Of a stretch of DNA of 12,704 bases, positions 1,365-12,704 are shown one piece after another. Location: UHGV virus genome UHGV-0239954, one strand, 5' to 3'. The stretch comes from a virus. Each line of letters begins with the position of its first letter. The stretch's first letter is position 1. The notes under the pieces were generated by a model, which ran no database searches, was not told the origin of the DNA, and saw only the letters and a list, made by a program, of their open reading frames with translations. Made by a program: the position numbers and the translations under genes.

Positions 1365-1597
1365 AAAATATTCCATCAATCGTTTGTTAAAAGCGTAGAT
1401 AACCACTTATTTAACAACTTGAAAATAAGGTGTTTTACCTGGGTTGTTACAAAAGGATTGCATTGCGTAAACGCTTTTTATTTACAACAAAATGGGGAAG
1501 TATTACGGCGATTGCGAAAAGTCTGAAGCGATTGAATTAAGATAATATAGAAAATCAGATACAGCAAAAATGGCAGATTGATCAGGTGAAGATAAAT

Positions 1598-1625
1598 TGG
1601 AGCGGGCGAAGGGAATCGAACCCTC
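1598..1625 (-). repeat. Partial tRNA-Gly 3' end (T-arm, 3' acceptor strand, CCA) = attachment-site repeat of an integrated element; not an intact tRNA
   Basis: Minus strand reads GAGGGTTCGATTCCCTTCGCCCGCTCCA: canonical T-loop GGTTCGATTCC, 7-nt acceptor 3' strand and CCA. This matches my recollection of the enterobacterial tRNA-Gly(CCC) glyU 3' end. The complementary 5' acceptor strand (GCGGGCG) and D/anticodon arms are absent from the adjacent ~90 nt, so only a ~28-nt fragment is present. An integrase gene starts 88 nt away. Confidence 0.6.
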
Positions 1626-1713
1626 ATAGCTAACCCATTGAATTGTGAACCAAAATAAGTAATCGCGGTACTTATCCCGGTAGTTGGTAGCGGTAGATTA
1701 CAAGGTAATTACC

Positions 1714-2940
1714 ATGCCAATCAAGAAGACTTCTTATCTTTATGCAAACAAAGATGGGATATTCATCTTTCAAATCTTTATCCCGGTGTACATGCGCCAC
1801 TTATGGCACGGGCGGCGCTCACTCAAGAAATCGACAGGCACGCGGGACATCATGCAAGCTCGCATATTCCGTGACCAATACTTATTAGAGTTCCGAAAGC
1901 TCCAGCTCATGATGAAACCGGATAACCCTATAAACCGGATTCATTCTGCTATTTCAGATCTTCACTTACTGGCGGGAATATCCAGCGACATTACCGCGCC
2001 CGTAACTACTCCAGCAGAACGAGGGAAACCAGCGTCGCCAAAATTGACAGATGTCAGTAAAGAATATGCAGAGCAATACAAAGATCGGCGCTCTTATTCC
2101 ACATTGAGTAAATCCGCTCGCGCTGTATCAGCATTCACTAAATCAACTAAGCGCCCAACAATTACAATAAACGGAATCGGGCGGCGGCTCGTCTCTGACT
2201 TTCTGAAAGCGAACCAAGATAAGTTTTCCCGGCAGACGCTGCAAAACTGGTTAACTTGCTTAGGTACGCTGTACGACTTCGCCCGGCGTAAATATGACAA
2301 TATCGCCCCTGATAATCCCTTTCACGGCCACAATCTGGAAGCCCGTCAGACAAACGAAAGTTACCAGCCGTTTGAACCGCACCAGCTACAGACATTAACA
2401 AAAAAGGCAGGTGACGAAATAAGGGATGTAATAATAATCGGGCTGTATTCCGGGATGCGTCTTGATGAAATAGCCAGCATTAAACGGGATGAGGTTGTCA
2501 CCATCGACGGCGTGCGGTGTTTCTATGTCAGTAAATCAAAAACAAAGGCGGGTATAAGGCATGTCCCTGTACACTCGCTGTTATTTGACATTGTTGATAA
2601 ATACCTCGCGCAAAACAGCGGGGAGTACCTGCTCCCCCAATCCAACAAAATTAAACGCGCGGATGGTAAACGTGGGCCGTGGTATTCTCAGACATTTACC
2701 CGCTTACGTCGCCGGGTACTACCAACAGCCACAGAGCGCCAGTGTTTCCACTCCCTGCGTGGTCACTTCATCACCTGCTTAGACCGGGCAGGTGTACCAG
2801 AACAGCGCATAGGAGCTATTACCGGGCATACAGAGAAAAAGGCAAAGACGGAAGCATTTAAAACGTACAGCCAAGGGGCTGGGATGAAAGAACTATCTGA
2901 ATACGTAGAGCTGGTAAGTTATCCAGAACTTGAATCATAA
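1714..2940 (+). CDS. int: Tyrosine recombinase / phage-type integrase
   Basis: ORF 1684-2940 in the track begins with TTG; first ATG is at 1714, preceded by AAGG 8 nt upstream. The C-terminal half has tyrosine recombinase hallmarks: conserved Arg in GMRLDE, H-x-x-R in FHSLRGH, and C-terminal Tyr candidates in KTY/SEYVEL. Position beside a tRNA-derived att site fits. Confidence 0.88.
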   Translation: MPIKKTSYLYANKDGIFIFQIFIPVYMRHLWHGRRSLKKSTGTRDIMQARIFRDQYLLEFRKLQLMMKPDNPINRIHSAISDLHLLAGISSDITAPVTTPAERGKPASPKLTDVSKEYAEQYKDRRSYSTLSKSARAVSAFTKSTKRPTITINGIGRRLVSDFLKANQDKFSRQTLQNWLTCLGTLYDFARRKYDNIAPDNPFHGHNLEARQTNESYQPFEPHQLQTLTKKAGDEIRDVIIIGLYSGMRLDEIASIKRDEVVTIDGVRCFYVSKSKTKAGIRHVPVHSLLFDIVDKYLAQNSGEYLLPQSNKIKRADGKRGPWYSQTFTRLRRRVLPTATERQCFHSLRGHFITCLDRAGVPEQRIGAITGHTEKKAKTEAFKTYSQGAGMKELSEYVELVSYPELES

Positions 2941-2942
2941 TT

Positions 2943-3371
2943 TCAGGCAGGGTAAATAATCCCCAGCCCGCGATACTGGCGGCGGTATTCTCTGACCAGA
3001 GCATCCGCCGTCGCCCTCGGCAGCTTCGCCATATGCCCGGTACGATAGCCACCCTCGGCAGAATTCGCTGCACGATGTACAACAGCCCGCACGCGCCCGG
3101 TTCTGTGGTCGTGGTCGAGGGTCGTGCTGCTGAACGCAACAGCCCGCCCGGTAACGGCACACCGTCGATACTGATAATTCCACAGAAAGCAACGCACCGC
3201 AGCCACGTCAGCACGGCGCAACTCCAGTCGCCCTGAACCATTCAACAGGAGGCGATACACATCGTCGAATGCAGCAGCGTTTCTAACGCGCTCAGCCAGC
3301 GGCATATTGCCAAGGAACTCCAGATAATCCCGCATTGCTTTTCTTAAAAGTTGGTCTGTCCGTGTAACCAT
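2943..3371 (-). CDS. Recombination endonuclease VII-like nuclease with degenerate zinc-binding site
   Basis: ATG at 3371 with GGAGA 9 nt upstream. Segment CAVTGRAVAFSSTTLDHDHRTGRVRAVVHRAAN matches the EndoVII signature C-x-x-C...DHDH-x-TG-x-VRG-LLC-x-x-CN as I recall it, but three of the four zinc-ligand cysteines are replaced (T, H, A). The catalytic DHDH and Asn are retained. Its stop lies 2 nt from the integrase stop, convergent. Confidence 0.6.
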   Translation of the reverse strand: MVTRTDQLLRKAMRDYLEFLGNMPLAERVRNAAAFDDVYRLLLNGSGRLELRRADVAAVRCFLWNYQYRRCAVTGRAVAFSSTTLDHDHRTGRVRAVVHRAANSAEGGYRTGHMAKLPRATADALVREYRRQYRGLGIIYPA

Positions 3372-3643
3372 GATTCAAAGTCTCCATTGTCAGACACAGC
3401 CCGCTTGCAGGCTTCGTATTCTTCGCGCTGGCGTTGGCATACCAGAGCATAAAGCTCATCAGCCACCGCATTTACGCGCCTATCACTGATACCGTTGCGA
3501 CGCATCTGCCCCAGCAGCTTACGAAATTCAGCCTCAAGCTCAGGCTCTCCTGTATCCATTACCCACTGTTTCAAGTCAGCGAGTGCGCCAGTCATTGGCG
3601 GCGGCTCGATGTACCGCCACCTTAATTTAATCGTCAAAGCCAT
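3344..3643 (-). CDS. Hypothetical small protein (99 aa)
   Basis: ORF 3344-3649; the second ATG at 3643 has GAGGA at about 6-nt spacing, so it is the preferred start. Overlaps neighbours on both sides (operon packing). No recognisable motif. Confidence 0.5.
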   Translation of the reverse strand: MALTIKLRWRYIEPPPMTGALADLKQWVMDTGEPELEAEFRKLLGQMRRNGISDRRVNAVADELYALVCQRQREEYEACKRAVSDNGDFESWLHGQTNF

Positions 3644-4052
3644 AAGCATTCCTCTTTATATCGTTTGCTCTCGCTTCACTGGCTTGTTTAAGCGTCATTC
3701 CTTCGATAGCTATATCCAGCAGTTCCTTTTGCTTACCAGCCAATCGCAAGGCGCTGTCTCTCCAGCAAAGCAGAAAGAAGATTGTCAGCACCTGTTTACT
3801 CAATCCATCCAGAAGATCGCCAAGTCCTTGATCCAGCAGACAGGCACGCCATGCAGCAGCGTGCTGCGTCATAGCACCGACTATCGGGATAGGTGCGCCA
3901 AGCATCGTCGCAAGCTGACTCATAACACTATTAGCATCGCCCGGATGCAGCCGGGGAATAGTCATGCGGCCAGCCTGCGCCAACAGCTCGGCGTACCTCT
4001 GGCGACGTGGGTCATCACATGCCAGCGGTTTAATTGGCTTTTCATCAGCCAT
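3627..4052 (-). CDS. Hypothetical protein (141 aa)
   Basis: ATG at 4052 preceded by GGAGG 9 nt upstream; 17-nt overlap with the downstream gene. No confident family assignment. Confidence 0.55.
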   Translation of the reverse strand: MADEKPIKPLACDDPRRQRYAELLAQAGRMTIPRLHPGDANSVMSQLATMLGAPIPIVGAMTQHAAAWRACLLDQGLGDLLDGLSKQVLTIFFLLCWRDSALRLAGKQKELLDIAIEGMTLKQASEARANDIKRNAYGFDD

Positions 4053-4070
4053 ATATGGAACCTCCGAGGA

Positions 4071-4598
4071 TTAGGCAGCCTGCAACAAATCGGCTGGCGT
4101 TGAGGGATGGTATCTGGCTTTAGCTTTTAGATAGGCAGCACGCGCCGCCGCTTCGGTTGTGAACAAGCCAAGGTGATGGCGTACACCATTAACGCGAATG
4201 TAAGCCTCCCATTTACCAGAACAAGAATGACGGCTATATCCCTTCGCTTTGCGGTAGTTGTGCTGATTCTCCTGCGGTGTAACAGCGCGGAGGTTGCCCG
4301 GTCGATTATCGGCACGTACAGCGTTAATGTGGTCGATTTGCAGACCGTCAGGGATACCACCATTAGCAATGATGAAGGCCACGCGATGCGCATAAATCGA
4401 GTGCGTCCTGCCGTCGATGCGGACAGACACGCGCCGATACCCGGCGCTGTCCGTTGCGGTGTCAGCCAGTTCCCCGGCCTCAGCATAAATCCGCTTGTTG
4501 ATTCCAATTCGGTCTACTGCATGGAACAGGCGGCCAGTCTCCGCATCGTATCGAAATAAAGAGCGTAGCAGCTCAGGGGCGTAAGCATCATTAACCAT
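4071..4598 (-). CDS. HNH endonuclease with AP2 DNA-binding domain (phage homing-endonuclease-like)
   Basis: ATG at 4598 with GGAGGGG upstream. N-terminal YDAETGRLFH, HNH core IDHINAVRADNRPGNLRAVTPQENQHN and C-terminal AP2-like SGKWEAYIRVNGVRHHLGLFTTEAAARAAY match the HNH_3 + AP2 architecture common in phages. Confidence 0.85.
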   Translation of the reverse strand: MVNDAYAPELLRSLFRYDAETGRLFHAVDRIGINKRIYAEAGELADTATDSAGYRRVSVRIDGRTHSIYAHRVAFIIANGGIPDGLQIDHINAVRADNRPGNLRAVTPQENQHNYRKAKGYSRHSCSGKWEAYIRVNGVRHHLGLFTTEAAARAAYLKAKARYHPSTPADLLQAA

Positions 4599-4614
4599 GA
4601 CTCAGCCCCTCCAG

Positions 4615-5610
4615 TTACACAGCTTGTCGGAAATTGATAACGCAGTCAGGGCGGCGCAGTCCAACATTGAACAGGCGATATGAGTCCATCACCATCGTCA
4701 TTTCGCGCTCATCATCCCACTGGCGATTGATAACGCTCTGCGCTTCGACTGTCACAAGTACAGACGCAGGCCGGAACAGCGTCGCCCGCGTCAGCGCTTC
4801 CTCTGAGGTAACGTCATAATCAGCGCCCAGTTCATGCCCGGTAATAGCTTCCTGCGGGTAACTGTTCAGCTCAATGACTCGTACCCCAGCGACATAGCCA
4901 ACTCGACGCCATGCGTAATCGTTGCCACTATCCCGGCTGTAACGGACGTTCATCAGCTTCTTATGTTCCATCAGGATGCTGAACCAAGCCGGGTCGATAA
5001 GCAGTACCAGCTCGGCCACCGGAATATCTTTCTCAGTGAGAAAGCGATTAGCAGCCGCTTTTACGACGTGAGCCAATTCGTTTGCGGCGTCCTCTTCGCT
5101 CCCCGCTGTCAGGTCGAGCGATACAACGTTATCCGTTAGTGGGTTAAACGTTGGTTGCAGTGTCGGCGGCGGTACAAAGTCAGTCGCTTTGATTAGCTGG
5201 ATGGTGTGCGCTTCGTCGTAGAATTTAGCGTGAGCAGTACCCATATTGCGGCTCAGCTCTGCGCGAAAGGTGGGCGCTGTCCAGTCGTCCTGATAGTCAA
5301 TCGGAATGCGGATATAGCTCAGCGTATCCACAGAGATAATCAGCTTATCCGACTTAACAGCGGTAGGCTCCAGCGATTGCCCTGCGGTTCTGCCCTTCAC
5401 CTCCAGATCACCACTCAGGCGATCAATGCGGTATTGGTTGCTGGCTTTCAGCGGCCTGTATGTAGACAGCCCCTCTGCCAGAAATACGGATTTGGACTCT
5501 AAACGGGTCTGGACATCCCGGTCATAAGCCTCGATGTGAATATCATTGTCGGATTCCACCCCGCCATAATGTGGGCGAAACAGATCGGGACTGTACGAAG
5601 TATCAGTCAT
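4615..5610 (-). CDS. Major capsid protein-like (T7 gp10-like, HK97-fold family), 331 aa
   Basis: ORF 4615-5655; preferred start is ATG at 5610 with TAGGAG 8 nt upstream (the two upstream ATGs lack a well-spaced SD). Segments KLIISVDTLSYIRIPIDYQD, LTEKDIPVAELVLLIDPAWFSILME and RPASVLVTVEAQSVINRQWDDE align in order and spacing with T7 gp10A segments KVITIDGLLTADVLIYDIED, LTKNYVPAADRVFYCDPDSYSAILAA and HRSAVGTVKLRDLALERARRANFQ as I recall them. Length is similar to gp10A. Confidence 0.6.
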   Translation of the reverse strand: MTDTSYSPDLFRPHYGGVESDNDIHIEAYDRDVQTRLESKSVFLAEGLSTYRPLKASNQYRIDRLSGDLEVKGRTAGQSLEPTAVKSDKLIISVDTLSYIRIPIDYQDDWTAPTFRAELSRNMGTAHAKFYDEAHTIQLIKATDFVPPPTLQPTFNPLTDNVVSLDLTAGSEEDAANELAHVVKAAANRFLTEKDIPVAELVLLIDPAWFSILMEHKKLMNVRYSRDSGNDYAWRRVGYVAGVRVIELNSYPQEAITGHELGADYDVTSEEALTRATLFRPASVLVTVEAQSVINRQWDDEREMTMVMDSYRLFNVGLRRPDCVINFRQAV

Positions 5611-5669
5611 AAACAAAACTCCTACGTAGGTTGATGAAGCCCGCGCCATCGTCATGGCACAGACGTGCG

Positions 5670-5694
5670 GAATCCTCCCGCCGAGGCAGGATTC
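5670..5694 (-). promoter_or_regulatory. Stable stem-loop in the leader of the capsid gene (possible RNA processing or stabilising element)
   Basis: GAATCCTGCC...GGGAGGATTC inverted repeat (9 bp with one mismatch, 5-nt loop), about 60 nt upstream of the capsid start inside the only sizeable intergenic gap (5611-5808) of the operon. No U-tract follows, so it is not a typical intrinsic terminator. Confidence 0.35.
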
Positions 5695-5808
5695 AGAACG
5701 GTATCGATTAAAGGGATGAGGTGCCCCGAAATGGGCGTTTTGAGGCCAGAGCTGGCGCGGTTCTCAGAGGTTAGTGCGCGTGAAGTAAGGCGAACGTATT
5801 ACCTTGCA

Positions 5809-6222
5809 TTAGTGCGCACTCATACGCGCCATGTTCAACACCTTCCGCACAGAGGTTTCAGACACGCCAACCTTACTTGCAATGTAACGATTCTTCTGGC
5901 CTTTTGCAGAGCGCTCGATAATGTCAGCGCGTACTGCCTCAGTGATCACCTTGCGGGGTCTGGCTCGATTCTTCTCGTGCCGTTCACGTTCGCGCATCCG
6001 CTCGGCCATCTTCGGCGGCAGCACAGGGGAAAGCCCACGGCTAACGCCAGAGGTGCGGGTGTCGGACGTGGCAGCTCGGGCAACGATATAAACCACTTCG
6101 TCTGGATTGAAAACGTGCTGCACACGCTCAGGGTAAATGTGGTCGCATCTACCCAGCGGCAAGGCGAAATCCGGGCGCACGTCAGCGACACGCTCCACGG
6201 CATGGAAATTACAGGTACTCAT
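5809..6222 (-). CDS. Small DNA-binding protein with C-terminal Hin/resolvase-type HTH; possible small-terminase-like or regulatory protein
   Basis: ATG at 6222 with GAGG 6 nt upstream. C-terminus RARPRKVITEAVRADIIERSAKGQKNRYIASKVGVSETSVRKVL fits the GRPRK...IA...GVS..TV.R.L pattern of Hin/resolvase HTH domains. No resolvase catalytic domain is present. Confidence 0.6.
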   Translation of the reverse strand: MSTCNFHAVERVADVRPDFALPLGRCDHIYPERVQHVFNPDEVVYIVARAATSDTRTSGVSRGLSPVLPPKMAERMRERERHEKNRARPRKVITEAVRADIIERSAKGQKNRYIASKVGVSETSVRKVLNMARMSAH

Positions 6223-6361
6223 TAGGAACCTCGGTTAATTAAAAACAGGCTTTTAGATGCCGCGCAGAATGCAGCTTGCGGGGACTCATGCGCTTAGATT
6301 GGTGTGGTAGTACCGGGTTGGAGCGCACTCAGTCTTGCAGGGCGCATTCCACCGTTGGGCG

Positions 6362-7048
6362 TTAGCGACCAGCACGTTTGCCAGCGGAGCGCTGCGCAAC
6401 CAGAGCGCGGTATTGAATGTCGTACTGGCGATGGCCGGGGCCATACCCTGATTGCTGCGCCCACTGCGAAAGCTGATCATACGCTGCAATAAACTCAGCA
6501 TGAGACATACCAACAGGTTGCGAGGCAGGCTGGCCGTATGGGTTCCCCTGTGATGGGACATAACCAGTCGCAGTGCCTGCGGCCATACGCTCTTGCAGAT
6601 AATGAACCGCCCGCTGCATCTGCGCAGGGTCGCCAGACATAACCATCCGTTCAAGGGTTGATTGCGTCCCGGCGTCGAGCGTGCCAGCGTACTGCAACAT
6701 CGCGTCAACTGTACCCTGCCCTAGCTGGCTTTCGACAGACTGGTGAAACTGCCCCATCAGCCCATGAAGTTCAGGAGTCAACTCAACAGTAGTGCCATCC
6801 TGTAATTGCAGTGTGTCGCCCACTTGTGCAGCAACATCAATCTGCTGGTCTTGCTGGTTGGCAAAGTTACTTTCGCTCCAGCTTTGATTAATGTTCGCTG
6901 GCTGCGTTTTCAGGAAATCAGCATCAGGTGTTGTCTGGTCGAATCGGCTAGCGCCGTTGTCAGCACCTACAGGTGCGGCCATGTACGGCGATTGCTGCGG
7001 CGCAGTATCAGCGCCCGAAAGATATGGATTAACATTCTGGTCAGCCAT
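6362..7048 (-). CDS. Acidic Gln-rich low-complexity protein; candidate capsid scaffolding protein
   Basis: ATG at 7048 with AGAGG 7 nt upstream; start overlaps the upstream stop (TAATG). Composition is Q/D/E/A/G-rich with no hydrophobic core pattern, and it sits upstream of the capsid gene, analogous to T7 gp9 upstream of gp10. Function is inference only. Confidence 0.6.
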   Translation of the reverse strand: MADQNVNPYLSGADTAPQQSPYMAAPVGADNGASRFDQTTPDADFLKTQPANINQSWSESNFANQQDQQIDVAAQVGDTLQLQDGTTVELTPELHGLMGQFHQSVESQLGQGTVDAMLQYAGTLDAGTQSTLERMVMSGDPAQMQRAVHYLQERMAAGTATGYVPSQGNPYGQPASQPVGMSHAEFIAAYDQLSQWAQQSGYGPGHRQYDIQYRALVAQRSAGKRAGR

Positions 7049-7050
7049 GA

Positions 7051-7290
7051 TTATGCAACCTCTTGTGATGTAACTCGGCGATGTGCCAGTTCAAGTAAAA
7101 GCATGTGTGCGTGTACGCAGCGTGGGGGAATCATCTTCTGACCGTGGTACGCCTTGCAGAGATCTTGTCTGTCAATTTGATACACACGAGCCAGATCGAT
7201 TTGGCGTAGATTCAAGGCATCAGCAATGAATTTCAGTTGTTGCCCGCACTCCACCGCGCGGCGCGGCTCCATTAAAATGATGGTGCTCAT
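7051..7290 (-). CDS. Small HTH DNA-binding protein (Cro/XRE-like), 79 aa
   Basis: ORF 7051-7332; preferred start is ATG at 7290 with GAGGA 8 nt upstream. Segment QQLKFIADALNLRQIDLARVYQIDRQDLCKAYHG has helix-turn-helix character. Confidence 0.55.
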   Translation of the reverse strand: MSTIILMEPRRAVECGQQLKFIADALNLRQIDLARVYQIDRQDLCKAYHGQKMIPPRCVHAHMLLLELAHRRVTSQEVA

Positions 7291-7304
7291 GAAATAATCC
7301 TCAG

Positions 7305-7538
7305 TTAGATAAGGCCATGACGACGCAACCAACGTCGCTCGCCAACGGAGCCACGCGGTCGCTGCCTTGGGTTCTGGTTTGGTGCTTGGCCGGGATCAGT
7401 TCGTCCTTCCCCGGACAGGTTCTGTGTCAGCACATCCCAGCCGCGTGATTCAAACGGGGCGTATCCCTCGCGCTGTTCGTCAAGGTTCACATAGAGATCA
7501 GGGTTAACGGCAGGGTGCAGCGGTTCGTTCTCTGCCAT
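7305..7538 (-). CDS. Hypothetical small protein (77 aa)
   Basis: ATG at 7538 overlaps the upstream stop (TGATG); the track start at 7541 is a GTG. Pro/Gly/Arg-rich, no recognisable motif. Confidence 0.4.
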   Translation of the reverse strand: MAENEPLHPAVNPDLYVNLDEQREGYAPFESRGWDVLTQNLSGEGRTDPGQAPNQNPRQRPRGSVGERRWLRRHGLI

Positions 7539-8098
7539 CACTTAGCCCCGAATCGCGTGTTAACATCTTCCAAAATATCGGGGTAGCTCCAGCGGTTACG
7601 CATCAGGCGCAGGACATGAGCAACAGCCTCAACAGAGATCCCAAGCTCTCCAGCGATCTCGGTTTGTTTCCAGCCGAAGCGCTCCAGCTTGTGCATCTGA
7701 TCGAGGTCGGCGCTCAACAGGCGGCGCATCGTCTGAGGTTTCTCAGGCTTCGCTTTAACAGCTTTCGGCATCGGGTGGGTGTGGGCGTTGCTAAAGCGGG
7801 AATGTGCGATAGCCAGCACAGTCTCAGGGCGAATCAGCATATCGCGGGCAATCATAAACTCTGTATCGCGGTGCAGCTTGCCGGGCTTATAGCGGCTGCG
7901 GATGGCGTTGTACTCCGCCAGAGTGATATCAGCATCGTCTTTCCAATTTTCGGCCAAGTCATCGACATAGACGCCACGGATTACAGCATCAATATCGGTC
8001 AGGGTATGACCTGTCTCCGCTGCAATCTCTTCATTGTTCTTTAGGTGCTTATGAGCCAGCGTGTTAATGCGCTGGATATCGGTAATGCTCAAAGTCAT
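7538..8098 (-). CDS. DNA-binding protein with C-terminal sigma-70 region 4 / LuxR-like HTH (regulator or small-terminase-like)
   Basis: ATG at 8098 in an ATGA overlap with the upstream gene. C-terminal RRLLSADLDQMHKLERFGWKQTEIAGELGISVEAVAHVLRL resembles sigma region 4 / GerE-type HTH. Confidence 0.6.
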   Translation of the reverse strand: MTLSITDIQRINTLAHKHLKNNEEIAAETGHTLTDIDAVIRGVYVDDLAENWKDDADITLAEYNAIRSRYKPGKLHRDTEFMIARDMLIRPETVLAIAHSRFSNAHTHPMPKAVKAKPEKPQTMRRLLSADLDQMHKLERFGWKQTEIAGELGISVEAVAHVLRLMRNRWSYPDILEDVNTRFGAK

Positions 8099-8271
8099 AC
8101 ATTAAACTCCGAATCAAAATTGATCTGGTCAGTAACCAGCGAATGAATCAGCGCAAGGCTGGATGCGGTATGTGTGCCCGACTTGCGGGCGTTGTCGTAC
8201 ATGAAGCGGGCTACACGTTGATATTTCTCCGGCAGCGTGGCGAACCATTGCCGGAACTGTTCGGGGGTCAT
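8095..8271 (-). CDS. Hypothetical small protein (58 aa), translationally coupled
   Basis: Not in the ORF track (under 60 aa). ATG at 8271 overlaps the stop of the upstream gene as ATGA, and its own stop overlaps the next start as ATGA. Sequence MTPEQFRQWFATLPEKYQRVARFMYDNARKSGTHTASSLALIHSLVTDQINFDSEFNV. Confidence 0.45.
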   Translation of the reverse strand: MTPEQFRQWFATLPEKYQRVARFMYDNARKSGTHTASSLALIHSLVTDQINFDSEFNV

Positions 8272-8477
8272 TGGTCGTCATCCTCCGGGAACACGTTGTT
8301 AAAGGTTGTATCAGGCGAGTCGGCGGCGTTCTGCTTGAGGAAGTTCACGCAGGATGACAACTCGGCAGCAGCCATGCGTGACTCTCCCGCCTCGTCCTCC
8401 TTAAGCCTGCGCGTCAACGCACCCAGCAGCAGGGTTTTTAGTTCCCATGCTCCGGCTTCAAATTCAGATTTCGTCAT
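8268..8477 (-). CDS. Hypothetical small acidic protein (69 aa)
   Basis: ATG at 8477 in an ATGA overlap with the upstream stop. Acidic C-terminus PEDDDQ. Confidence 0.5.
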   Translation of the reverse strand: MTKSEFEAGAWELKTLLLGALTRRLKEDEAGESRMAAAELSSCVNFLKQNAADSPDTTFNNVFPEDDDQ

Positions 8478-8905
8478 TGGTGGTTATCTCCAGTTAGTCC
8501 CATTGCACGCAAGTGTTGAATGACCTCGGCATGTACTGGTTTTGGTAAAAACAGGCGACGCTGCACGGATTGAAGTATCTCGTCGCGCGTCTTGTCGGCA
8601 GGGTGAACAGTCCCATTAAAGACCTCACGAGCCATGCGATAGGTCGGCCAAAGGCGAGCGCCATCCTCCCTGCGACGGAATCTATTCAGCACAGCGGCCA
8701 GACACTCCCACGGCTCACAGTTATTGAGCAGGCAATACCGCTGTAGCGGTGTCGTTGCCCGGCGCATGATGGCTTCACGATTAAGGGTCTGAATATGACG
8801 TTCGGCCAGTCCGTCGAATGAATAGCCGTTCAAAGCAAAGGCGAGCTGCGCATTAAGCAGGGCGTCAGAACGCCCCGCACGATGCAGTGCGGTTTCATCA
8901 GGCAT
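8474..8905 (-). CDS. Hypothetical protein (143 aa)
   Basis: ATG at 8905 with GGAG 9 nt upstream. Contains a Cys cluster CLLNNCEPWEC. No confident family. Confidence 0.55.
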   Translation of the reverse strand: MPDETALHRAGRSDALLNAQLAFALNGYSFDGLAERHIQTLNREAIMRRATTPLQRYCLLNNCEPWECLAAVLNRFRRREDGARLWPTYRMAREVFNGTVHPADKTRDEILQSVQRRLFLPKPVHAEVIQHLRAMGLTGDNHQ

Positions 8906-8948
8906 AAGGATTCTCCAGAAAGGAATTTAAACAGGCGAGCTGGTCAGC

Positions 8949-10838
8949 TCAGAGGAAGCGGGAGATGTAACCCCAATTGCAGTTTTCAGGGCGGTACAAC
9001 GCTGCCAGCTCATCAGGTACACCGGACGGCACCGGGGCAGAGTCGGCGTCATAGGTGATGGGGTCGCCATACAGAGCCAACGATGACCACAGCAGAAAAG
9101 CACGGGCAGGTTGACCGTCACGCCCGGCACGTCCGATCATCTGAACTAAATCGGGCAGGTCTTCGGGAACATAAGTGACAATTACGTTACGCACGCCAGA
9201 GATATCAGCCCCCAGCCCGAAGGCTTTAGTAGCAATCAGAACCGCGCCGGGCGTGCTGGCAAACCACGCAGCGTTAGCGTGACGCTGGTCGCGGCTCAGT
9301 CGCTCAACGTCAGAATGGTAAGGCCGGGCGCGGTCTCCCAGTTCGTTGAGATACGCATACAGCATCTTGATACTGTCCACCATCACCAGCGTCTTCTCAT
9401 CCAGCGGGAGGGCATCGACCAGACCAACGGCAGCCCGGCGCGTAGTTGCGCACTGCTGAACAGGAATAAGCTGGATGTTTTCACGGGCAGCACTGGCGCG
9501 GTAGGTGAGGAACTCGCCACGACAGCCAAGCTCTTTCATCAAGCCAGACTCATCACCTTTTCGCAGGGTCGCAGTAAACGCGCACCGCTGAGCATCCGGG
9601 AAGGCATTTTTCAGGGTGTGTTTCATTGCAGGGAAAGCGTCCCGGAACTCCCATTCATCAACGGTATGAACCTCGTCAATGATAAATCTGTCCACACCAG
9701 CGGCCATCAGCGCAGCCAGCACCTGATTGCCCGGCACCAGATGCTCAGGTGAAACTACGGCAACGTGGAAAGCGCCAGCAGCCAACCCCGCAAGCTGTTG
9801 CGCATTGCGTCGCCTCGGCAGCTTGTCGCCAAAGGCAACAGCGTGAACGCCAGTTTCTAGCAACTGCTGTAACACCTGCTGCTTGATGGTGTTTGTAGGC
9901 ACAACAATAACGGTCAGACCGTCATCAGAATCAGATTCAAATTGCAGGGCATAGGTGAATGCAGCCGTCTTTCCGTACCCGGTTGGCAGTACGGCCAATA
10001 CATCGCGGTCACGGGCAAATACGGCGGCAGCTACGTCCTGCTGGCCGGGTCTCCAGTCTCTGCCATCTAGCGGTGGTAACGGTACGAATGCCGGGCGGTC
10101 GCATTGCTCCAGCTCGCGGAACCTGTACGGCGCGGTAACCAGCGGCGGGATGGACGGCGGCAGGCCAGCACCCCCAACGTCACAATGCAGATTCAGCGTA
10201 TTGAATTTATCATCCGTGGGTTTCAGCTCACCGCACCACAACTGACGGAAAGCCGGGCAGTCACCCAGTCGCGTAAAGTCAGCATGGCGCATAGCTTCCA
10301 GCTTGCTCATGCCGCGACTGATACGACGCACGATCTTCTCATCGCAAATCAGAAACTCACGGCAGGCTTTGAGGAAGGCATTCTGCCCGGTTGTCGCTTC
10401 CGGGATGGAGTGCTCGCGCGGTTTAAGCGCAGCGTCATCAACGCGAACGCCGGGGAAATCTGGCGGCAGCGGCTCGGCGTACCGGGCAGGCTTTTTGTTT
10501 AGCCACATCTCCAGCTCAGCGCGGCGGCAGTGGATTGCATCGCCCGGCTGGATAATCTGGCGCAACCCGGCATCAGCGCGGCGGGAATGTCGCTTGCGGC
10601 CAATTCCATTCGCCTCTTTCCATTCACGGAACGACATAACTGAACCATCTGCATTGTAGAAATACTGCCCGGAAACGGTGTTAAGCGCTGCCTTCACTGG
10701 TCGCTGTTTAACAGGGCATAACTTGGAATGAGGTATAACGATCTTATCCGCAACCAGTTGCTGAGCATCCGCAGGCTCGGTGTTCAGCGGTTCGGCGTCA
10801 GCGGCCAGCGTAAGCAAGCGGTTTAAATTGGTTGGCAT
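8949..10838 (-). CDS. RecQ-family SF2 DNA helicase with ~275-aa N-terminal extension; putative replication protein of the element
   Basis: ATG at 10838 with GGAG upstream. Ordered helicase motifs match RecQ: RPGQQ...LPTGYGKTAAF (motifs 0/I), TVIVVPTNTIKQQV (Ia), FIIDEVH (II), FTATL (III), IATKAFGLGADISGVRNVIVTYVPEDLPDLVQMIGRAGRDG (V/VI). No RQC/HRDC region follows. The N-terminal part has no clear match apart from an excisionase-like AIHCRRAELEMWL segment. Confidence 0.88.
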   Translation of the reverse strand: MPTNLNRLLTLAADAEPLNTEPADAQQLVADKIVIPHSKLCPVKQRPVKAALNTVSGQYFYNADGSVMSFREWKEANGIGRKRHSRRADAGLRQIIQPGDAIHCRRAELEMWLNKKPARYAEPLPPDFPGVRVDDAALKPREHSIPEATTGQNAFLKACREFLICDEKIVRRISRGMSKLEAMRHADFTRLGDCPAFRQLWCGELKPTDDKFNTLNLHCDVGGAGLPPSIPPLVTAPYRFRELEQCDRPAFVPLPPLDGRDWRPGQQDVAAAVFARDRDVLAVLPTGYGKTAAFTYALQFESDSDDGLTVIVVPTNTIKQQVLQQLLETGVHAVAFGDKLPRRRNAQQLAGLAAGAFHVAVVSPEHLVPGNQVLAALMAAGVDRFIIDEVHTVDEWEFRDAFPAMKHTLKNAFPDAQRCAFTATLRKGDESGLMKELGCRGEFLTYRASAARENIQLIPVQQCATTRRAAVGLVDALPLDEKTLVMVDSIKMLYAYLNELGDRARPYHSDVERLSRDQRHANAAWFASTPGAVLIATKAFGLGADISGVRNVIVTYVPEDLPDLVQMIGRAGRDGQPARAFLLWSSLALYGDPITYDADSAPVPSGVPDELAALYRPENCNWGYISRFL

Positions 10839-10859
10839 GGTGCAAACTCCAGAGAAGGA

Positions 10860-11297
10860 TTAAATACTACGCGCCCAAGCTAAATCTTCGGGTGTCCGAC
10901 TTTCGATTAACGCTAACTGCCAGCGTAAGTAATCCTCATGTTCTTTGGTGTATCGGGGAATACCTATAGGATTTTTCACAGCGTCCGGGTTAGTCCTCGC
11001 GACTTCCCTGCAATCTCGGTCGAAAGCCCAGCGGGCAACTTCCACCGATTCGTAATCCGTAAATCGGTACGGCCTTGTGCGGGAACGTACACGCCAGACA
11101 ACTTGCCCTAATTCGTGGATGTATATGCCGCAAAGTTCATCCGGGCTTGGGTGATACAATGGCTCCCCATAATTCTGGCGCATGAACTTCACAAACTTTT
11201 GATTGCGGCGGGCACGCCGTGCTTTTTCGCGTCGCTCCTCGGCTTCATACTCTTTTTGAATGGCGGCACGGTCTACCGGGATAAGTGTTTTGCTCAT
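10860..11297 (-). CDS. Hypothetical protein (145 aa), first gene of the leftward operon
   Basis: ORF 10860-11474; preferred start is ATG at 11297 with GGAGA 9 nt upstream. The longer N-terminal extension would run through the iteron-like repeats. Basic N-terminal region (EERREKARRARRNQK); no family recognised. Confidence 0.55.
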   Translation of the reverse strand: MSKTLIPVDRAAIQKEYEAEERREKARRARRNQKFVKFMRQNYGEPLYHPSPDELCGIYIHELGQVVWRVRSRTRPYRFTDYESVEVARWAFDRDCREVARTNPDAVKNPIGIPRYTKEHEDYLRWQLALIESRTPEDLAWARSI

Positions 11298-11366
11298 ACA
11301 GTGATCTCCAGAAATTAATGTGAGTTTGGAACGGGGCGCAGGACGGAAGCGCCGGGAGTGTGGCAG

Positions 11367-11719
11367 TCTGTCCTCCTTAGTAGTTACCATCATTGCAATG
11401 GCGTCGGAGTTCTGTCTCTCTTTAGTAGTGATCTTCATCCAGTAATTTGGATTAAATGCAGACACGGCGGGCATTGCAGCGAGATGGAGAGTAGGCGGGC
11501 TTGCGGTTTCAGTCTGCCTTAGTACAAGTTTCTAGTGGTCGGTAGCCTTTCCCTTATTAGTAGCTCTCATTTATCCGGGGCTTGTCTTCCCACACAGTAG
11601 CCGTCTTCTAAAGCAACCACACCACAATCCACTACTGGCAAGGAGTTAGCAGACACGGTGATGTAGGCTACTCAAGTGTGGATTTGTAGGCGTTTTATAG
11701 TATCTGTCCTTCTTATTAG
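11367..11719. repeat. Iteron-like direct repeats (consensus about TCTGTCCTYCTTAGTAG), candidate origin or operator array
   Basis: Copies at 11367-11383, 11411-11428 and 11703-11719, with diverged copies at 11513-11525, 11546-11563 and 11581-11600. All are in the same orientation with irregular spacing, immediately upstream of the operon and next to an AT-rich tract (about 11725-11830). Confidence 0.5.
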
Positions 11720-11831
11720 ACACCTTTAAATTTCATTAATAAATACAGTTAGTTAAACGGTTATCTTTATTACTTATAAATTTCACAGATCAATAAATTA
11801 AAATTGATCGGAATTATCAGCTTTAATTTTC

Positions 11832-11851
11832 TTGACAGCTATTTGTATAAT
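11832..11851 (+). promoter_or_regulatory. Promoter-like hexamers TTGACA / TATAAT (non-canonical 8-bp spacing)
   Basis: TTGACA at 11832-11837 and TATAAT at 11846-11851 are perfect consensus hexamers but too close to act as one sigma70 promoter. Each could pair with a weaker partner. No plus-strand ORF follows. Confidence 0.2.
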
Positions 11852-12029
11852 GGTTTTAAGAAGTTGTATCGGAGTGAGCGACTGGCAGTGAGCGTAGCGA
11901 ACGATAAGCCAGTCGGCGAAGAACGAAGAGTATGAGATGACTTGTCATCGAATACGATGAGTGATTGAGCGGTACGAACGGAGATACGCTGTATAACAGT
12001 TAGAACAGTTAACAAGCTGATTAATGCTT

Positions 12030-12194
12030 TCAATGATTATCTGAATCAGTGTTATCAATTCCGAAATAACTCTTCCTCTCCTGTATTGATTCAATCATTT
12101 CTTTCATTTCAAGAATCACTACCAGCTCAGCTAATAACCGTCTCAGTTCAACATTTGAATCATTAGCACGACACTTATTTTCTGAGTATTCCAT
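12030..12194 (-). CDS. Hypothetical small protein (54 aa)
   Basis: Not in the ORF track (under 60 aa). ATG at 12194 preceded by GGGAG 8 nt upstream. Sequence MEYSENKCRANDSNVELRRLLAELVVILEMKEMIESIQERKSYFGIDNTDSDNH. Lies between the GC-rich structured region and the iteron region. Confidence 0.3.
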   Translation of the reverse strand: MEYSENKCRANDSNVELRRLLAELVVILEMKEMIESIQERKSYFGIDNTDSDNH

Positions 12195-12299
12195 ACGGTC
12201 AACTCCCTACGGTATAAGTCCATTCCAATCCGTTCACAGATTACATTGCTGAATGATCATCAGACAAGTGGCAGTCATCATCACCAAGTTAGAGTCGTC

Positions 12300-12600
12300 T
12301 CGCTACATATCCCCGCCGGATTGCCAGCGCGGCTAACACGGTTGTGAGGAGCGCCGAGCATCACAGCGGACGCAGGCCGATGAACGAGCCGTAGGTGAGT
12401 GAAAGCGGACTCGCGGACGCGAGAAGCGCAGCAGCAGGCGGCGACTGATAAACGAGCCAGACAGGTGAGTGCAAGCAGGCGTAAGCACTGCACCGTTGAG
12501 AGGTGTGGAGACGGCGGAACGTCTCCGCGTTAGGGAGGTGGATTTGGGGAGGATGTGCAAGGCACACCTCGCTCCACCCACGGGGTGTCGGTGGGTAGGG
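12300..12600. ncRNA. GC-rich structured non-coding region with paired direct repeats and hairpins (candidate regulatory RNA or leader)
   Basis: All three plus-strand frames contain stops; the minus-strand ORFs overlap in multiple frames and have R/S/P-rich translations. Two ~28-nt direct repeats (12369-12396 GATGAACGAGCCGTAGGTGAGTGAAAGC; 12437-12466 GATAAACGAGCCAGACAGGTGAGTGCAAGC). Perfect hairpin GGAGACG-GCGGAA-CGTCTCC at 12498-12517. Further stems at 12453-12483 and 12563-12587. Confidence 0.25.
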
Positions 12601-12704
12601 GTATAACGCTAATTGGTTAAGTGTACACATGTACGCTGAAATCATTAAAAGCCTATAGAAACAGCATGTAACCCAGCACCACGACATAACCAATTATCGT
12701 TGAA

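Follow-up and report, generated by a model that had tools for sequence, protein, structure and literature searches.

The virus genome UHGV-0239954, of which we analysed the whole stretch of 12,704 nucleotides (the window), carries on its minus strand, between positions 7305 and 8905, a cassette of five small genes, each starting before the preceding one has ended. This raises the question of whether the five genes form a functional unit and, if so, what such a unit would do. A first-pass annotation, made from the letters of the sequence alone, had proposed a regulatory or helper-interference module. The direction of that proposal was right, since the cassette lies in a satellite-like island. 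One of its products, not recognised in the first pass, is a truncated homologue of a phage small terminase (TerS). We tentatively read the cassette as a packaging-specificity or hijack module, at rather less than an even chance. This fits best because the TerS fragment adjoins a putative DNA binder with several helix-turn-helix (HTH) units, upstream of head genes, in an element that would need a borrowed large terminase (TerL). The overlaps are ordinary when taken alone; the interest of the locus comes from the island and the TerS-like member, and model strains, the enteropathogenic Escherichia coli (EPEC) strain E2348/69 among them, carry this island.

The minus strand was read base by base across the junctions. 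The first cassette gene, g143 (8474-8905, 143 aa; the genes are named after their length in amino acids), is followed by the TerS-like g69 (8268-8477, 69 aa), g58 (8095-8271, 58 aa), g186 (7538-8098, 186 aa), the product of which has three HTH units, and g77 (7305-7541), which encodes 77 aa from an ATG at 7538 or 78 aa from an in-frame GTG at 7541. The first three junctions are all of the ATGA type, located at 8477-8474 (context ccaATGAcg), 8271-8268 (ccaATGAcc), and 8098-8095 (gtATGAct), while the g186/g77 junction is TGATG at 7540-7536, where the g186 stop codon TGA (7540-7538) and the ATG of g77 share one nucleotide. The gaps are therefore -4, -4, -4, and -1, and use of the alternative GTG would turn the last junction into GTGA with a 4-nt overlap. 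Direct reading thus bore out the five genes and four start-stop overlaps of the first-pass annotation, and at each of the four junctions the upstream stop overlaps the downstream start, as in a translationally coupled operon. For g69, g58, and g186, the gene before contains a sequence resembling a Shine-Dalgarno (SD) motif (GGAG/GAGG) 8-10 nt upstream of the start codon, and the g77 start is preceded by a weak GGGG alone. Two members had been placed below a length cutoff of 60 aa; only g58 falls below it. The small genes had also been described as easy to miss. This was not the case for g58 and g69, which PGAP annotates in every genome inspected, but it was for g77, which is left out by PGAP in five E. 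coli genomes (L001, L002, L006, L007, and L008; L numbers designate related loci) and annotated in other genomes with an ATG or a GTG start. A conserved 77-aa gene is systematically overlooked in this way.

Escherichia phage forsur (Bonnellvirus), the closest phage relative of the island capsid, served as reference for how often such overlaps occur. In forsur 20 of 54 co-directional junctions overlap (0.37), mostly by 1 or 4 nt, and the phage has a run of four overlaps of its own. At this rate, a run of at least four overlaps among the 14 junctions of the island has a P of about 0.13. The run is therefore not unusual for phage-like DNA, and it is the conservation that exceeds chance. These numbers, and the overlaps at the other end of the same operon (-17 and -28), agree with plain compaction, by which the overlaps would reflect phage-derived operon packing and the five genes, instead of forming a unit, would each serve some unrelated accessory purpose, as replication helpers or moron-like genes.

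The cassette was found in 59 of 5,426 complete E. coli genomes (about 1%) with 72-83% DNA identity, and also in Kosakonia, Kluyvera, Enterobacter, Trabulsiella, and Citrobacter. Clusters of cassette proteins additionally came from Cronobacter and Klebsiella. The first-pass annotation had called for a check of overlap conservation in homologues. All four junctions were found to overlap, with the same gene order, in 20 of 22 related loci (from E. coli, Enterobacter, Kluyvera, Kosakonia, and Trabulsiella), with the type of overlap varying among them (-1, -4, -8, or -17). Overlaps are kept across 40-100% amino acid identity, and on contig L024, where the proteins are 37-47% identical, the order is retained with overlaps of -14, -11, -4, and -4. 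Loss of the small open reading frames (ORFs) or frame-disrupting variation, either of which had been named as evidence against the proposal, was not observed in close relatives; the sole frame disruption seen was an in-frame stop codon in g143 of the distant L032. The median pairwise ratio of non-synonymous to synonymous substitutions (dN/dS) was 0.15 for g143, 0.09 for g69, 0.17 for g58, 0.20 for g186, and 0.12 for g77, and changes in third codon positions were in two- to three-fold excess for all five genes. Judged by these substitution patterns, all five ORFs are genuine protein-coding genes under purifying selection.

The junctions are not inviolable. In two Citrobacter loci (L022 and L023, 8465-8989) a homing-endonuclease gene of the HNH_3 family is inserted between g58 and g186, in L032 (9561-10079) such a gene lies between g186 and g77, and in L033 two of the junctions have gaps of +3 and +1 in place of the overlaps. 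The flanking genes survive the HNH insertion at both junctions. In the window an HNH_3 gene (4071-4598) comes after the capsid gene, and the different positions among relatives suggest active homing within the element family. The tight translational coupling that had been deduced from the overlaps is plausible, with the overlaps conserved and SD motifs present at three of the four starts, but it is not obligatory. Coupling is favoured, yet, given the exceptions in L022/L023, L032, and L033, dispensable. The fixed stoichiometry that had been deduced along with it does not follow from overlaps, and the junctions can be split by HNH genes or gapped in relatives.

Insertion of HNH genes at two junctions without loss of the neighbours is also what plain compaction would predict, as is the mosaic pattern among relatives, which reflects recombination between neighbouring cassette genes. 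Against this stands the order g69-g58-g186-g77, which was found to be invariant in every relative, including L032 and L033, down to about 40% identity, while the capsid gene, the gene for a 137-aa HTH protein (g137), the HNH gene, g79, and g143 are variably present. In close relatives g143 precedes this core. L024 (2630-3780) and L033 (10320-11615) have neither the capsid gene nor g137, but retain the scaffold-like gene and the cassette core. Among the relatives compared, the core is thus kept more strictly than the capsid gene, which counts as an accessory of the island family. Such constancy points to a functional unit of greater importance to the element than the capsid it encodes, and we consider it improbable that compaction alone accounts for the cassette.

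An indication of what this unit may do comes from g69, which encodes an acidic protein (isoelectric point, pI, 4.3). The only Pfam match, found for 15 of 16 members of the g69 family, was to PF11123 (DNA_Packaging_2), the T7 gp18-type small terminase. All matches were under the gathering score, the best member having an E-value of 1.8e-4. When the g69 family was compared to an alignment of Autographiviridae TerS with hhalign, the probability was 82.5% (E 9.8e-6), the 40 aligned columns were 45% identical, and the g69 motif RMAAAELSSCVNFLKQN paired with PMAAAELSVLRQFLKDN of TerS. Using a hidden Markov model (HMM) of the g69 family against all forsur ORFs in hmmsearch, TerS was the sole match (E 2.5e-5), and nine other island families, included as controls, gave no match to TerS. 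The similarity to true Autographiviridae TerS is thus specific and consistent across the g69 family. It spans positions 8-43 of the 79 in PF11123, corresponding to TerS residues of approximately 13-58 of 101, and does not extend over the full length of about 80-100 aa. From this we conclude that g69 is related to the Autographiviridae small terminase (T7 gp18 type) and is a truncated homologue that corresponds to the N-terminal half. It is not adjacent to a TerL gene, since neither the window nor the complete island of E2348/69 contains one. The gene g99 (3344-3643) was considered as a second TerS-like gene (hmmsearch E 0.014) and rejected at an hhalign probability of 0.3%; g58 and g77 were considered as the missing C-terminal half of TerS and were negative in hhalign.

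The second protein that bears on function is g186, which was modelled with AlphaFold2 (AF2) at a predicted local distance difference test (pLDDT) score of 81.5. Helices in residues 5-41, 60-98, and 129-167 form three tri-helical HTH-like units joined by linkers. The C-terminal unit has the tri-helical HTH fold (helices 129-140, 145-152, and 156-167, pLDDT about 90), and its matches to Pfam families of the HTH clan are weak, sub-threshold, and non-specific. The first-pass annotation had assigned a sigma region 4-like HTH to one member of the cassette. An HTH is indeed present, but the sigma label is too specific for what is a generic three-helix HTH: with Sigma70_r4_2, g186 reaches 16.3 bits where the cut-off is 25.7, the families HTH_ParB, HTH_23, and HTH_38 score equally well or better, and no match to sigma region 2 was found in g186, the AF2 model comprising the three HTH units only. 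A profile search of the PDB gave a match to the tandem-HTH protein 2lvs (E 0.0047). Foldseek searches of the model against PDB and BFVD gave nothing at E <= 0.001, and returned local HTH likenesses and multi-HTH tails of homing endonucleases only. The g186 family is tiny. An HMMER profile search of 1.84e9 proteins found seven clusters at E < 1e-30, the rest being unrelated multi-HTH repeat proteins, with no phage relatives among them, and tblastn with g186 detected nothing in 50,697 phage records. Based on the model, g186 is predicted to be a sequence-specific DNA binder.

Such a protein could equally be a regulator. It is possible, if somewhat doubtful, that the cassette is a regulatory or induction module, in which g143, g186, and g79 would be transcription factors and their small partners anti-repressors or sensors of helper infection that switch on the late scaffold and capsid genes, or excision and replication. 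The likeness of g69 to TerS would then be incidental, or g69 would descend from a helper protein and act as a sensor or decoy. This would be in agreement with the HTH-clan matches of g186 (Sigma70_r4_2 below threshold in 12 of 25 family members, HTH_38 at 4e-7), with the placement of the cassette between a replication helicase and the morphogenesis genes, and with iteron-like repeats upstream of the operon that could serve as operator sites. A pattern scan of the minus strand for sigma-70 promoters and terminators gave nothing beyond chance, so that dedicated activators or a phage RNA polymerase may be needed. However, none of the matches reaches a curated threshold and no signature of AlpA, Cro/CI, Mor/Delta, or sigma region 2 was found, a separate HTH protein (g137) is already encoded directly upstream of the capsid gene, and the TerS-like gene is left unexplained.

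For g143, g58, and g77, searches of Pfam, PHROGs, NCBIfam, PADLOC, and PDB sequences gave nothing usable. The g143 protein is basic (pI 9.3) and is annotated by PGAP in all relatives. Its family comprises 94 clusters, all from Enterobacteriaceae where the source names an organism, and it is the least conserved member of the cassette. The AF2 model of g143 is poor (pLDDT 63.7), with helices at 53-73 and a hairpin at 77-84, and may contain a winged helix; Foldseek gave no meaningful match with this poor model. No relatives of g58 or g77 were found outside the island family. Within the family g58 is conserved to 37% identity in L024 and is recognisable in L032 and L033. The g77 protein consists of an acidic N-terminal half (pI 4.1) and an arginine-rich C-terminal half (pI 12.0) that carries the conserved motif QRPRGSVGERRWLRRHGL. 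The gene is intact in all relatives, recognisable in L024, L032, and L033, and its variable sites are distributed over the three codon positions as 30/22/64. Directly downstream of the cassette lies g79 (7051-7290, minus strand, 79 aa), which encodes a basic protein. It is syntenic and non-overlapping, with a gap of +14 nt and its own GAGGA SD motif, has a dN/dS of 0.07, and occurs as two allelic types that are about 50% identical.

Taken as a packaging or hijack module, the cassette would work as follows. Its products would assemble into a complex for DNA recognition and packaging specificity, and this complex would recruit the large terminase of a helper to satellite DNA, compete with the helper small terminase, or do both. 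Co-translation of the subunits from a single mRNA would be maintained by the start-stop overlaps together with the internal SD sites. Complex formation, the packaging role, the identity of the helper, and actual coupling are in this scheme all things that we infer. A more specific version, which we offer with some doubt, is a split small terminase, in which the truncated TerS core (g69) is coupled to a DNA-recognition subunit with three HTH units (g186) and to g58, g77, and g143 as adaptors, thereby re-targeting the helper TerL; the island would then represent a new family of Enterobacteriaceae satellites that live on virulent T7-like coliphages of the Bonnellvirus type (Autographiviridae). 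If the cassette is a packaging module, it would provide a new and genetically tractable example of a satellite capturing a terminase without a classical DNA-binding small subunit. It could also explain the resistance of some strains to therapy phages of the Autographiviridae, and offer parts for engineering small T7-type transducing particles.

The truncation of g69 also lends itself to another explanation. The small proteins could inhibit the helper and have no role in packaging of the island, for example with g69 as a dominant-negative fragment that poisons the TerS ring and the arginine-rich g77 as a blocker of an assembly or nucleic-acid step. The lack of the C-terminal half of TerS is as expected of a decoy, and the protein families are ORFan and mosaic, which is typical of arms-race genes. 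Interference modules have precedents in Ppi of the Staphylococcus aureus pathogenicity islands (SaPI) and in Gpi of the Vibrio cholerae satellite PLE (Boyd and Seed, doi 10.1101/2024.04.22.590561). On the other hand, the dN/dS values are low (0.09-0.20) and not elevated as they often are in arms-race interfaces, pure interference does not explain the strict synteny with a DNA-binding protein, and relatives without a capsid keep the module, which is a better fit to an essential function in the life cycle. We therefore find interference alone quite unlikely.

Several observations weigh against a packaging role. The g69 protein of the window scores 18.2 bits against PF11123, where the gathering cut-off is 27.5, and the similarity to TerS is short (about 40 residues) and confined to the N-terminal half, for which in T7-type TerS no function is known and no structure was found. 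The most divergent g69-like protein (L033, 108 aa) gives no PF11123 match at all. Four of the five cassette proteins are without an informative homologue, so that the complex is guessed from synteny, and HTH proteins beside a replication helicase would fit a role in regulation or replication initiation equally well. The HNH insertions at two junctions mean that uncoupling is tolerated. A search for promoters of the helper type, pac sites, and mimicry of terminal repeats revealed nothing pac-like or helper-like in the DNA of the island, which has no non-coding similarity to forsur. Finally, the single IMG/VR match is an ordinary island copy of the chromosomal type and as such no evidence of encapsidation.

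The surroundings of the cassette are those of an integrative island, the left part of which makes up most of the window. Chromosomal flank occupies positions 1-1511, and the start of the island lies near 1598 (1598-12704); in L003 the whole island occupies 1448-16429, and the length is in general about 13-15 kb. The island starts with a tyrosine integrase gene on the plus strand (1684-2940; Pfam Phage_integrase, phrog_1), which is followed on the minus strand by genes for an endonuclease VII, two proteins of unknown function, the HNH_3/AP2 nuclease, a major capsid protein, the 137-aa HTH protein, a scaffold-like protein, g79, the cassette, a helicase, and a 145-aa protein. The cassette is placed within a long leftward operon.

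The capsid protein (4615-5610) is of the Autographiviridae type (phrog_267, E 5e-69), shares 56% identity with the forsur capsid, and indicates the likely family of the helper. Of the 780 phage records that it matches, most are from podophages infecting Klebsiella, Acinetobacter, and Pseudomonas, and all matches for which the taxonomy was fetched are Autographiviridae. The scaffold-like protein, g228 (6362-7048), matches the head scaffolding protein phrog_1018 (E 5.1e-6), its last 100 aa can be aligned, if weakly, to the C-terminal end of the scaffolding protein of forsur, and the island endonuclease VII is similar to forsur_55. The 137-aa protein (g137, 5809-6222) belongs to HTH_23, weakly matches phrog_836, 'late transcriptional activator' (E 0.0018), and is a candidate for activating the capsid gene. 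In L006 and L007 the g137 gene is replaced by a different 115-aa gene.

Directly upstream of the cassette, with a gap of 43 nt, lies the gene for a DEAD/DEAH-box helicase of 629 aa (8949-10838, minus strand; Pfam DEAD, Helicase_C, and ResIII; phrog_16, DNA helicase), which from its domains is presumed to function in replication. The helicase matches the PADLOC model PDLC02858 ('DpdF') with 1053 bits over the whole model, and no other Dpd gene is found nearby. It seems that PDLC02858 was built from the helicase of this island, and the model may thus give false Dpd calls.

The complete E2348/69 copy, from the integrase to tRNA-Leu, has no genes for a portal, large terminase, tail, lysis, DNA polymerase, or RNA polymerase. 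With the integrase at one end, relatives are found integrated at tRNA-Leu and tRNA-Thr. Neither AlpA and Pri-Rep, which mark phage-inducible chromosomal islands (PICIs) as well as PICIs that form capsids (cf-PICIs), nor the P4 proteins Sid, Psu, and Delta were found in Pfam and PHROG searches. Since integrase, helicase, capsid, scaffold-like protein, and nucleases are present while portal, TerL, and tail genes are absent, the island looks like a satellite of T7-like podophages, with Bonnellvirus as the closest of the Autographiviridae, and not like a prophage. In the literature searched we found no description of this island type or of an E. coli satellite of T7-like virulent phages, and no experimental data on helper-dependent induction or transfer of the island; the island type is apparently undescribed. 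A preprint on a YprA helicase, which refers to satellite-like defence islands at tRNA-Leu, gives no description of the element treated here.

The integrase side and the far end of the island contain variable cargo, including AbiTii, a Dcm-type methyltransferase, SIR2, and TIR proteins (L002 1-2430 and 15398-16537; L003 and L004 2747-3678; L005 1738-3889). Because these cargo genes are of defence type, the island may also carry defence hotspots.

At the left junction (1512-1625, minus strand) we observed a tRNA-like 3' fragment, with the T-arm GGGTTCGATTCCC at 1611-1623 followed by TTCGCCCGCTCCA, which is probably the attachment (att) site. Scans of the window for tRNAs and Rfam families gave no match. 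Compared to the window, strain 5735 has an extra element of 4.46 kb at the left junction (L001 3512-7973) with a second integrase and a DUF4145 gene, and genes of this element are found again at the far side.

Upstream of the 145-aa gene, at approximately 11350-11720 on the minus strand, there is a repeat of the type CTACTAAGGAGGACAGA, with two copies within two mismatches where 0.02 are expected, and about five looser copies were seen by eye. These repeats may be an origin or an operator. The true start of the 145-aa gene is probably at 11297, as given by PGAP, because the repeats fall inside the N-terminal extension of a 204-aa ORF. Scans of the whole window for repeats and tandem repeats gave nothing convincing, this short motif being the sole repeat seen, and no repeated promoter-like k-mer was found in forsur.

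Compared to known systems, the junctions themselves are not distinctive. Coupling by ATGA and TGATG in bacterial and phage operons involves the same 4-nt and 1-nt types with SD motifs inside the upstream gene. The T7 gp18-type small terminase (PF11123) shares with g69 the N-terminal helix and the motif AAELS-x4-FLK-x-N, but is about 100 aa long as opposed to 69 aa, while g69 lacks the C-terminal half and a neighbouring TerL and scores below the gathering threshold.

Satellites of the PICI type redirect the helper terminase by means of either a homologue of TerS or a protein that binds it, as with TerS and Ppi of SaPIs and Rpp of E. coli PICIs. The concept of terminase redirection would be shared with the cassette. 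PICI TerS proteins, however, act with cos or pac terminases of siphophages and are full length with a DNA-binding domain of their own, whereas g69 corresponds only to the N-terminal half of a T7-type TerS, and the PICI hallmarks AlpA and Pri-Rep are absent from the island.

In V. cholerae PLE, the adjacent small genes for Gpi, GpsA, and GpsB (orf3-orf5) inhibit and re-specify the helper TerL (Boyd and Seed, doi 10.1101/2024.04.22.590561). The cassette would be alike in its logic, with small ORFan proteins encoded in one operon, and PLE is likewise a satellite of a virulent phage. There is no sequence similarity between the two systems, the helper of PLE is the myovirus ICP1, and the cassette has a recognisable fragment of the helper-type TerS and a protein with three HTH units.

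The cf-PICIs encode a complete head and packaging set of portal, protease, head-tail connectors, TerS, and in some cases TerL (PMC13612085). Like the island described here, they carry genes for a major capsid protein of their own and for an HNH nuclease and use tRNA genes of Enterobacteriaceae as integration sites. In place of the complete head module (portal, protease, connectors, and TerS), the island has only the capsid, the scaffold-like protein, the HNH nuclease, and the TerS fragment, and it differs further from cf-PICIs in that its capsid is of the Autographiviridae type and that it encodes a DEAD/DEAH-box helicase.

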